Source of the DNA: a virus | Lineage: Duplodnaviria; Heunggongvirae; Uroviricota; Caudoviricetes | Length of the DNA: 42,375 bases | Reading direction: 5' to 3' (one strand) | Virus record (IMG/VR): IMGVR_UViG_2802429217_000003 | In this document: piece by piece, positions 1 to 3,000 of the stretch | How the letters are laid out: every line of letters starts with the position of its first letter | Numbering within the stretch: position 1 is the stretch's first letter | Made by a program: the position numbers

Positions 1-3000
1 CTACGATAACCGCGCATTCAACATGGCTACCTGTTCGTCGTTCATGTCATCAATCCACATACCGTAAATTTCATACACCATCTGCGCAGTTTCATGCCCC
101 ATCTGGCTGGCTATAAATGCCGGGTTCGCTCCTGCCGTCAACAGCCAGCAGGCAAAAGTATGTCGCGTATGGTACGGATTACGGCGGCGAATACCAGCAC
201 GTTTTACTGCTGCATTCCATCTCGCACCCAAACTGCTTACCGAGTAATAAGGTTTCTGTTTTCCGTTACACACTCTGGGCATGAAAACAAAATGCAGTTT
301 TTGCTTTTCGGTTCTGCCGTACTCCCGATGGTAAAAAGTGATTTCGCCTTTGCGATGATGCCCGGTCAGTTTGTATTGCTCCTTCAGTGCTTCAAGAGCA
401 GGCTGCAGTAGCGTTACTGTCCGGATCCCGGCATTTGTTTTTGGGGGACCGAACATATCAAGTATCGTCAGGTTTCTTCTGACATTCACTATTCCCTTCT
501 CGAGATCCACATCCTCCCACGCCAGAGCTGCCAGTTCCCCGTGACGAAGTCCTGAGTAAACGGCAAATTTCCACAAGTTCTGGCTCTGTCCTTTTTCACT
601 TTCCATTAATGCATTGAATTCTGTTTTAGATAACGGATCAGGCTTTATTCTGTTTCGCTGTAATTTTTTTACTCCTTCAAATGGTTTGGTTGATATAAAT
701 CCCGACTGATACGCAAAACGTAACAGCGAACAGAGCAGGGCGATATAGTTATCAACTGTGCGCACGGTTCTTCCTTTTTTGTTGGATCTTGGATTATCCA
801 GGTAAAGCGTTTCTCCATGCAGCAGTTCGTTCCGGTAGTTTAGGATATCGCTATAACGAATATGTGATATCGGGGTACTTTCACAAATTATTATTCTGAG
901 TGTTTTTAATTGTGATTTCGTTTTCTTCATTGTGTTTGTTGTTAACTCTGTCTCTTTAATTCTTATCCAGATATCACAAAGCTCCCCGAATGTTTTTATG
1001 ACTCTGGTTGTCACCATTTTCGCCCCTGTACTGGACTGGGGAAAACGTCTTAAATACTCAAATTCGCCGGAGTTTATTTCATGAACTATCAAAGCTCTTA
1101 GATTCCCGGCCTTTTTAATGTTGCTGTTAGTTACCTCCCAGCCTTTCAATGTTTCCCGACATCGTTTTCCTCGAAACATGAACCAGATGCGGATATATTT
1201 ACCTCGAATCTCAACACCTGTTGGTAATTTAGACATATCATGAGTCTTTGATAAACTGATTTATCTTTGGATAGTTGTACCAGATAATTCCGCGCTTACT
1301 GTCTGGCTTCCCTGAAGGAGATACTCGTTTGAAGTGGATGCCTTCCACCCAGCAGTTCTGACGGTATAGTTCAATTTGTCGGGCACCCAAACCAGTGCGA
1401 AGTGTCAGACCGTATTCAACCATCCACTCTTCATTAAAGATCACTTGTGCCATCGCATCACCTCTGGCAGGCGCCAATGTTAGACTGAAATTGACGCCCG
1501 ATGTTGATTATTAATAATCAGCTATGAAGTTTTAATTTGAATGTAATTCACGAGGACTGAAGTTTCTCGCAATTATAATTCATCAGTTTTACTTTCTGCT
1601 CTCTGGAAACGCCTGCTTCTTTTTTCCCTGAGAGCATTTTTTCACATTCTGATTTGGTTAGTTTTGTTTTTGAGTATCTTGTCCAGTTGGTAGGCGAACC
1701 GCCTTCCTTTTCAATAGTGGCAGTAATTTTATACATGAACACCTCCATTATTATTTCCAATGGTTCGTTTATTCCATCTTTCGAGGGCAGCTTTTTCACT
1801 TCCTCCATAACCAGATCGTGATTCGCATCCATTGCATTTCACACGGTAATATCCTGAAATCCCTTTCACCGTTACTGATGGACAACCACAAAATGGGCAT
1901 GGTTTAACGTCGTCATATCTCATATTTTTCTCGTAAAATATCTCACATAGGCGGCGCATTACGCCGCCAGGCTAGATTATTATTCTGAGCTATTTATTAC
2001 GCTGTATTCACCGGGAATAACCGATATTTCATCCGGATTAATTGCCTTCACCTCTTTCTCATCCATCGATACCGCGCGCTGGATTTCGATGGATACTGGC
2101 AAATACTTGAACAGTTTTCGTATCACTGTTTTTTTGGCCATGTCTTCGAAGTGATCTGTCCAGATGGAACTCCTTCTTTTTTTCGCCGCACTTATCGCTG
2201 CTTTGCTGTGTGTGTCGCGAATTCTATCAATTTGCTTGCGAGTCATTACCTCAAACTGAACGCCACCATCTTTTAGTTTTGCGACAGCATAGGCATGGGT
2301 GATCGGAGCGTCTTCATTTTCTCCCGGACGATGTATTAACTTTTCATCAAGGCCAAATTCAAAACTAAACTCGTCACCTTCACGAACAACACGGGCTGAC
2401 AGACTGGTGATTTGTCCAGAGCGGCGGGCAAGGTCGATCATGCCACGATAACCGATGATCAACTGCACGTTCTTCTTACCTGATTCTGCTTCTCCGTTGC
2501 CGAACGGTAACAGGTACGCATGACCGAGGGCGCTACCAGGCTCAAGCCCTAGCTGTGAACATTGTACGATTGCGCTGACAAAACTCATGGAGTCACATTC
2601 CCCTAACTCGGGAACTTTACGAATTTCTGTGGTGGCGATACGGATCATACGTTCAGGCGTCATATGGCGCGGAAGAGCTGCTGCCAGTATTGCTTTCATT
2701 GACGGTTTATTAATGCGGCTAATTACGTCATCATTTTTAGCTGCTGCTGGTGCTCGGTTTCCCTGAGTTTTTTGCAGATCGGCTTTTGCGATTGGTGGTT
2801 GCTTAGTCATTTGCATATTCCTTAGCCCAGCGGGGCAGTGATAACGTCTTAATAGCTGGCCATTCATCGGTATTGAGGCAGTCAGCCAGGGTTCGTAGAT
2901 TGCGGTGATATTCCTGCTGGCCTGCCAGTTTTGCTTCTTCGCCCATCATGAAAATCTCAACCGGATAACGTCCGCATTCAACAGTTGTGCTGGCAACCAG

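Follow-up and report, generated by a model that had tools for sequence, protein, structure and literature searches.

The window analysed in the current study comprises the entire 42,375 nt of a virus sequence (IMG/VR record IMGVR_UViG_2802429217_000003; Duplodnaviria, Heunggongvirae, Uroviricota, Caudoviricetes). Its first part is the left arm of a Rac-like prophage, in which the relevant genes all lie on the minus strand, and the element of interest is a GC-rich stem-loop at nt 1950–1968, situated in the short gap between the stop codon of recT and the start of ralR, a gene also named lar. The surrounding region (nt 1500–2100) was matched in 1,923 of 5,426 complete Escherichia coli genomes and is ~88.7% identical to the Rac prophage of K-12 MG1655, whose annotated genes here are rcbA, ralR and recT; recET-lar-ydaCQ is considered to be a single operon (PMC3141248). 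The genes and features of this arm are:

nt 1–1236, minus strand: intR
nt ~1238–1453, minus strand: xisR
nt ~1548–1757, minus strand: rcbA/ydaC (DUF1187; Pfam DUF1187 match)
nt 1552–1730, plus strand: RalA antitoxin small RNA (Rfam, 190 bits; gathering score 170)
nt 1729–1923, minus strand: ralR (= lar), a type I toxin and restriction-alleviation protein of 64 amino acids (aa) (Pfam Lar_restr_allev, 55.5 bits; RefSeq names)
nt 1924–1949, minus strand: AU-rich spacer of 26 nt and ralR leader, with a Shine-Dalgarno (SD)-like GAGA at 1929–1932 and no U-run adjoining the stem
nt 1950–1968, minus (sense) strand: GC-rich stem-loop with seven perfect G-C pairs and a possible U·G closing pair
nt 1969–1979, minus strand: spacer of 11 nt from the recT stop to the stem
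nt 1980–2810, minus strand: recT, 276 aa from the MTKQPP start, stop TAA at 1982–1980 (Pfam RecT, 179 bits, 8.4e-53; RefSeq annotation of the K-12 homologue)
nt 2803–5454, minus strand: recE
nt 5556–5879, minus strand: racC-like open reading frame (ORF)

On the plus strand nt 1950–1968 read GGCGGCG-CATTA-CGCCGCC, and the sense RNA is GGCGGCG-UAAUG-CGCCGCC. RNAfold gives it eight pairs, the eighth being a U·G that closes an AAU loop, and a stability of -16.0 kcal/mol for the isolated hairpin, while the surrounding 101 nt give a z-score of -2.7 for both strands. The stem begins 11 nt past the recT stop and ends 26 nt ahead of the ralR AUG (1923–1921). An original prediction made from this DNA had noted a perfect 7-bp GC stem between the recT stop and the lar start, and the window sequence bears this out, at a frequency above that expected by chance. 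Perfect 7-bp all-GC hairpins with loops of 3–8 nt occur at three places in the window (1950, 18667 and 38644), compared with a mean of 0.01 and a maximum of 1 per window in 100 dinucleotide-preserving shuffles. The 45-nt stretch following recT is the second most stable among 56 such stretches after ORF stops (-19.2 vs a median of -7.0 kcal/mol), and it lies beyond the 1st percentile of random 45-mers (-17.0 kcal/mol). Next to the GC-rich stem, the ralR leader can form a weak hairpin of AU pairs only (AUAUUUU-ACGAGA-AAAAUAU, nt 1922–1941, minus strand), in which the SD-like GAGA is looped out and the first two AUG bases are paired; the minimum free energy fold lengthens this hairpin by UAUGU/AUAUG.

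Comparison loci were gathered by a ralR or recT anchor and not by the hairpin itself. A GGCGG...CCGCC hairpin was present in 250 of 258 related loci, and the remaining eight have single mismatches or one small deletion. Relative to the window, the hairpin of the K-12 Rac prophage (GGCGGUG-UAAUG-CACCGCC) shows a compensatory change from C-G to U-A at pair 6. Other paired changes of the inner stem are UG/CA, CG/CG and UC/GG, as well as CUGC/GCAG, which produces a 9-bp stem, and the loop alleles differ in both length and sequence (UAAUG, UAAUA, UAAUU, CAUUA, UGAUU, UAGCCU, UAGUCC, UGCAACAA and UGCUUCUG). Covariation was scored on an alignment of 24 alleles (A3) from the Rac, Citrobacter and recT2 set; epsilon15-type hairpins were left out, as they do not fall in the MAFFT register. 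In A3, 91% of cells are paired (30–68% in slid controls), and double-sided changes affect three pairs and 15 cells. The covariation score of 0.208, which applies to related sequences whose variation is limited to inner pairs, compares with 0.099±0.020 for shuffles and was reached by 0 of 500 of them, with slid controls at no more than 0.096. The counts are UA 13, CG 5 and UG 4 at pair 6, and GC 18, CG 2, UA 2 and UG 2 at pair 7, while the outer five pairs never vary. Among the 18 distinct sequences of the recT1 context, variable sites make up 4/14 of the stem, 4/5 of the loop and 21/40 of the flank. Base pairs are kept through compensatory changes in independent lineages, as in conserved structured RNA elements, and the alignments show that the stem is maintained by selection.

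As to the strand, G·U pairs on the sense strand are fixed in the divergent lineages L008, L220, L273, L335, L373 and L377 (six alleles), and three sporadic alleles pair on the antisense strand only. Both one-step intermediates of pair 6 are present, U·G in four alleles and C·A in two. The compensatory stem changes, together with the lean of G·U pairs to the sense strand, support the earlier view that the hairpin belongs to the leftward polycistronic transcript and is an element of the RNA. In the Salmonella loci L090–L095 (~1963–1981) the loop is CATTA, the exact reverse complement of the E. coli TAATG, in an unchanged stem and unchanged flanks; this is the kind of change made by intrastrand template switching at palindromes.

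The equivalent hairpin begins 4–11 nt past the recT stop in the related contexts, after spacers of differing sequence, and its stability is -14 to -17 kcal/mol in every one. These contexts differ as follows in the RecT upstream, the gene downstream or the stem itself:

Rac type: RecT of 270–277 aa (276 in the window, 269 in K-12), followed by ralR
L010 type: a different RecT of 336–369 aa, followed by ralR
Citrobacter prophages: RecT of 336 aa, with a DUF7740 gene between hairpin and lar
L373 and L377: RecT of 369 aa, followed by a NinX-like gene
Edwardsiella phage Edno5: RecT 64% identical, followed by EaA2
epsilon15: GUGGCGC-CACG-GCGCCAC, RecT 53% identical, followed by gp33/AlpA-like
Klebsiella phage ST512-KPC3phi13.3: GCGGCGC-CGGGC-GCGCCGC, a U-A to C-G compensation relative to epsilon15
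Phi05_1387B: GCGGCG-N7-CGCCGC, epsilon15-type

Since the hairpin is kept whatever gene comes next, the element is tied to the 3' end of recT and not to lar. Judged from these genomes, the hairpin goes with the recT 3' end among temperate phages of enterobacteria and is not lar-specific. The proposal that it modulates lar was thus too specific, as an equivalent hairpin also precedes DUF7740, NinX-like, EaA2 and gp33/AlpA genes.

Intrinsic terminators have a GC-rich stem of 5–14 bp with a short loop, and the hairpin falls within this range with 7–8 bp, all of them G-C apart from the U·G closing pair. They also have about five or more U within the 8 nt after the stem, which the hairpin and all of its homologous contexts lack. 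No U-tract directly follows the stem on either strand (8-nt tails UAUGUGAG sense and AGGCUAGA antisense), and tail scores in the style of d'Aubenton-Carafa are 0.93 for the sense and 0.19 for the antisense strand, with a range of 0.0–1.5 over all homologous contexts; the two clear terminators of the window, at 38644 and 20744, score 4.69 and 4.08. A consensus terminator scan found nothing at the hairpin. The two canonical terminators (38644–38664 and 20744–20763) likewise have a GC-rich stem past a gene end (-16.2 and -10.6 kcal/mol, compared with -16.0 here), but they carry a U-tract, whereas the recT hairpin has none and went undetected by the scan. A canonical terminator is ruled out on either strand by the missing U-tract, and for the same reason the attenuator that had been suggested fails as an intrinsic terminator, in line with the low tail scores and the silent scan. 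Hairpins lacking a U-tract are also found elsewhere in the window. The strongest post-stop hairpin, at 18667–18688 on the plus strand (GGCGGGGG-AGAAAT-CCCCCGCC; 45-mer -24.3 kcal/mol), follows an ORF of 68 aa (18446–18652) and has no U-tract, and others stand at gene ends near 33040, 37088 and 13757.

Our tentative interpretation, the most economical one, which we regard as quite possible without calling it probable, is that the hairpin functions in the sense RNA, where it would mark or protect the end of the recE-recT segment as an exonuclease barrier, a pause site or both. The leftward transcript recE-recT-ralR-rcbA-xis-int would carry the hairpin at the end of its recT cistron, and because there is no U-tract, the hairpin alone should not release RNA polymerase. 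Following an endonucleolytic cut in the AU-rich downstream spacer, or termination farther downstream, trimming by PNPase and RNase II would proceed as far as the base of the stem and probably halt there. The recE-recT segment would so gain a stable 3' end at a fixed point, with a level that might be uncoupled from that of the later accessory genes, the toxic DNase RalR among them. In the form of such an exonuclease barrier beside an AU-rich spacer, the processing site that had been suggested is plausible. RNA polymerase may also pause transiently at the same place because of the hairpin, which is compatible with the barrier, not exclusive of it. We infer the barrier or pause function, and likewise any effect on ralR.

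Such a role has parallels. In polycistronic mRNA the repetitive extragenic palindromic (REP) element between malE and malF is an intercistronic stabiliser hairpin, and the recT hairpin resembles it as a GC-rich intergenic palindrome within an operon, able to set differential segment stability; REPs, however, exist in hundreds of dispersed genomic copies, while the recT hairpin is single-copy per prophage. In design the hairpin matches the stable 3' stem-loops described by Dar & Sorek 2018 (PMC6061677) in Rho-dependent or processed E. coli transcripts, which lie past stop codons without U-tracts and were proposed to block PNPase and RNase II. As in those structures, a stable stem-loop with no U-rich tail stands just past the stop codon of recT. 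Within the operon there is a second hairpin of the same design, at nt 5528–5548 on the minus strand (AGCCUGCG-UAUGG-CGCAGGCU; -14.9 kcal/mol, tail score 0.59, no U-tract). It starts 7 nt past the stop of the racC-like ORF and 73 nt ahead of the recE AUG, and the whole racC-like/recE intergenic region, this stem-loop included, is identical in K-12 Rac. Its position after a stop codon in the same operon is counted in favour of the barrier.

In Salmonella phage epsilon15 (GenBank AY150271.2, nt 30056–30073) a stem-loop directly after RecT is labelled as 'transcriptional pausing'. It is the sole feature with this label in the record, 'rho-independent terminator' features being annotated elsewhere. 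The two hairpins have in common a 7-bp GC-rich stem, a short loop, the lack of a U-tract and a similar position, 7 nt past the RecT stop (11 in the window) and ~23 nt ahead of the next start codon (26 in the window). They differ in stem sequence (GUGGCGC/GCGCCAC in epsilon15) and in the downstream gene, which is gp33/AlpA-like instead of ralR. Among the epsilon15-type podoviruses, the close relatives ST512-KPC3phi13.3 and Phi05_1387B retain the stem with the compensatory exchange of U-A for C-G. The epsilon15 label is a computational annotation, for which no experimental basis was found.

Several points weigh against the proposed barrier. The structures of Dar & Sorek have rut (Rho utilisation) sites directly downstream, which are C-rich and G-poor, whereas the 100 nt downstream of the recT hairpin are translated, contain more G than C (24% vs 13%) and are not rut-like; the Rho-linked form of the protective-hairpin model is weakened, as this downstream region is not C-rich. 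A search of the literature found no RNA-end or half-life data for the recT-ralR locus in any strain: neither Adams 2021 (PMC7815308) nor Yan 2018 (PMC6131387) lists these genes in its supplement, and papers on Rac regulation (PMC11879457, PMC6765115) do not discuss the recT-ralR intergenic region. No such hairpin follows recT in Proteus phages (RecT 64% identical) or Pseudomonas phages (59%), so that recT itself can do without it. In four unrelated flank contexts the outer arms, TGGCGG/CCGCCA, show no variation, beyond what a purely structural need would explain. Furthermore, as both intermediates of pair 6 occur, the assignment to the sense strand is only a lean.

Early-left transcription of lambdoid phages is normally antiterminated, and this counts against the hairpin acting, between recT and the next gene, as a pause site or as a transcriptional attenuator of weak or conditional effect, an explanation that we consider unlikely. 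It would agree with the location of a GC hairpin at a cistron boundary, with the 'stem-loop; transcriptional pausing' marked at the equivalent position in AY150271.2, and with a U-run that lies ~10 nt past the stem in Rac-type sequences (UAUUUUUU in K-12, AUAUUUU in the window). The epsilon15 label is, however, an annotation and not an experiment, the distal U-run is missing in Citrobacter, L373 and epsilon15-type contexts, and the stem itself is adjoined by no U-tract, with tail scores of 0.0–1.5 vs 4.1–4.7 and a silent scan. Improbable, in our view, is a 5'-terminal stem-loop on a separate mRNA of ralR or the downstream cassette, which would shield that mRNA from 5'-end-dependent RNase E and have its -10 element overlapping the recT stop. 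Hexamers resembling a -10 do end 5–7 nt before the stem (AATAAT in the window, K-12 and Citrobacter; GATATT in recT2 loci), but any TAA/TGA stop in AT-rich DNA is expected to look like one, and the epsilon15-type spacer, CACCACC, has none. While Guo et al. 2014 (PMC4041452) found ralR mRNA in wild-type K-12 and inferred a native promoter, there is neither a -35 nor an extended -10 at this position, a promoter scan gave no minus-strand site here, and transcription start site data for it were not found in the literature.

The invariance of TGGCGG/CCGCCA, even though the flanks change both upstream (recT1 or recT2) and downstream (ralR, DUF7740 or NinX-like), could also reflect a role of the palindrome as DNA, either as a protein-binding site or as a recombination or junction sequence for exchanging post-recT cassettes. 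The flipped Salmonella loop is a DNA-level hairpin event and would suit this explanation, as would the coexistence of C·A and U·G intermediates, but we think such a role improbable: the gap between the conserved arms varies (9–10 nt; loop 3–8 nt), epsilon15-type phages retain the structure with different arm sequences, and there is no candidate binding protein. A collection-wide search of viral contigs for TGGCGGTG-N3-8-CACCGCCA gave 120 stretches, 70 of them with recT and/or ralR; neither gene is near the other 50, which are unrelated hits in ordinary terminators or in coding DNA, most of it GC-rich. That the outer arms are so strictly conserved across mosaic junctions is the sole unusual aspect of the element, and leaves a small chance of a junction or recognition role. 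The TGGCGG/CCGCCA clamp could sit where Rac-like prophages swap either the accessory cassette (ralR, DUF7740, NinX-like) or the gene of the recombinase, for which there are two RecT types. There is a slender chance that it is a portable junction element, combining an RNA boundary with shared homology for cassette shuffling, or the recognition site of an RNA- or DNA-binding factor gating RalR; the promoter/stem-loop cassettes of T4-type phages follow a comparable logic. Least credible is an antisense element, that is, the 5' end or terminator of a plus-strand transcript that arises from a promoter-like site at 1910–1939 or from RalA read-through. A plus-strand match, TCGTCA-18-TAAAAT (9/12), ends at 1939 with its predicted start 2–4 nt before the stem, and the TAAAAT, complementary to the ralR leader, is conserved. 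K-12 and recT2 contexts do not keep the -35, matches of this quality are common in AT-rich DNA (5 found vs 3.3 expected), the antisense tail scores of 0.2–1.3 speak against a terminator, and the G·U evidence leans to the sense strand. What probability remains beyond a barrier and a pause is shared by the 5' hairpin, the DNA-level site, the antisense element and the absence of any function.

Other identities were rejected. The hairpin is not part of RalA, as the Rfam match (190 bits) is confined to nt 1552–1730, nor is it a RalA target site, since the longest perfect complementarity between RalA and ralR lies in the coding region (1792–1799). A boxB/nut-type antitermination hairpin is defined by a conserved GNRA-like pentaloop that is read by the N protein, while the loops here vary freely in length and sequence. 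RNase III needs roughly 20 bp, for which stems of 8–9 bp are far too short. A dispersed repeat, such as a REP or a miniature inverted-repeat transposable element (MITE), is excluded by copy number, the 601-nt region around the hairpin having a median of one place per E. coli genome, and in viral contigs by the link of the stem motif to recT/ralR, the hits in unrelated DNA being due to chance. An extension of the stem by a longer outer helix (AUCU/AGAU in the window, UUCA/UGAA in K-12) is seemingly compensatory, but it is broken in Salmonella and missing in recT2 contexts.

The AUG in the loop (1959), which is in frame with ralR and would open an ORF of 76 aa, was likewise dismissed as the RalR start, as it is not conserved: the UAAUA and UAAUU alleles lack it, as do Salmonella (CAUUA, UGAUU) and every recT2 context. 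Gene callers nonetheless emit RalR products of 77–80 aa from the loop ATG (P0002–P0004, one cluster having 684 members; nt 1729–1959, minus strand), and are thus misled by it. K-12 has a further in-frame ATG four codons upstream of the annotated ralR start, and 19 loci (L043 type) have TTG in place of the annotated ATG, so that the true RalR start may differ between lineages.

The hairpin is an ordinary, previously unannotated example of a common kind of element, whose positional equivalent is already annotated in epsilon15, and it leaves the current understanding of phage gene regulation unchanged. For annotation it can serve as a landmark of the junction between recT and the accessory cassette in Rac-like and epsilon15-like phages, and should not be labelled as a terminator. 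If it does act as a barrier or pause, a single leftward transcript could give unequal expression of RecE/RecT and of the accessory genes, including the toxic DNase RalR, and the hairpin would be a natural 3' boundary for recombineering constructs derived from Rac.

Some further observations concern ralR and its antitoxin. The RalR of the window is 97% identical to that of L010, which has the other RecT type, and only 91% identical to that of K-12, while recT, the hairpin loop and the leader are of the Rac type; a recombination joint is therefore likely to lie within the first ~8 codons of ralR. The longest perfect complementarity between RalA and ralR mRNA measures 8 nt in the window and 11 nt in K-12, where UGCUUCUUUUU matches AAAAAGAAGCA of the ralR coding region; the published figure is 16 nt, and antitoxin-target pairing may be weaker in the window variant.

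Two other sets of repeats were seen in the window. The inverted repeat GTAACGC-N5-GCGTTAC occurs in three copies spaced ~200 bp apart (9114–9134, 9307–9327 and 9515–9533), in the presumed immunity region, and these are likely candidates for repressor or Cro-type operator sites. At nt 27457–27490, overlapping TGCGCAG repeats that are split by A-runs (CTGCGCAAAAAAGTGCGCAGAAAAAATCTGCGCAG) form alternative hairpins.

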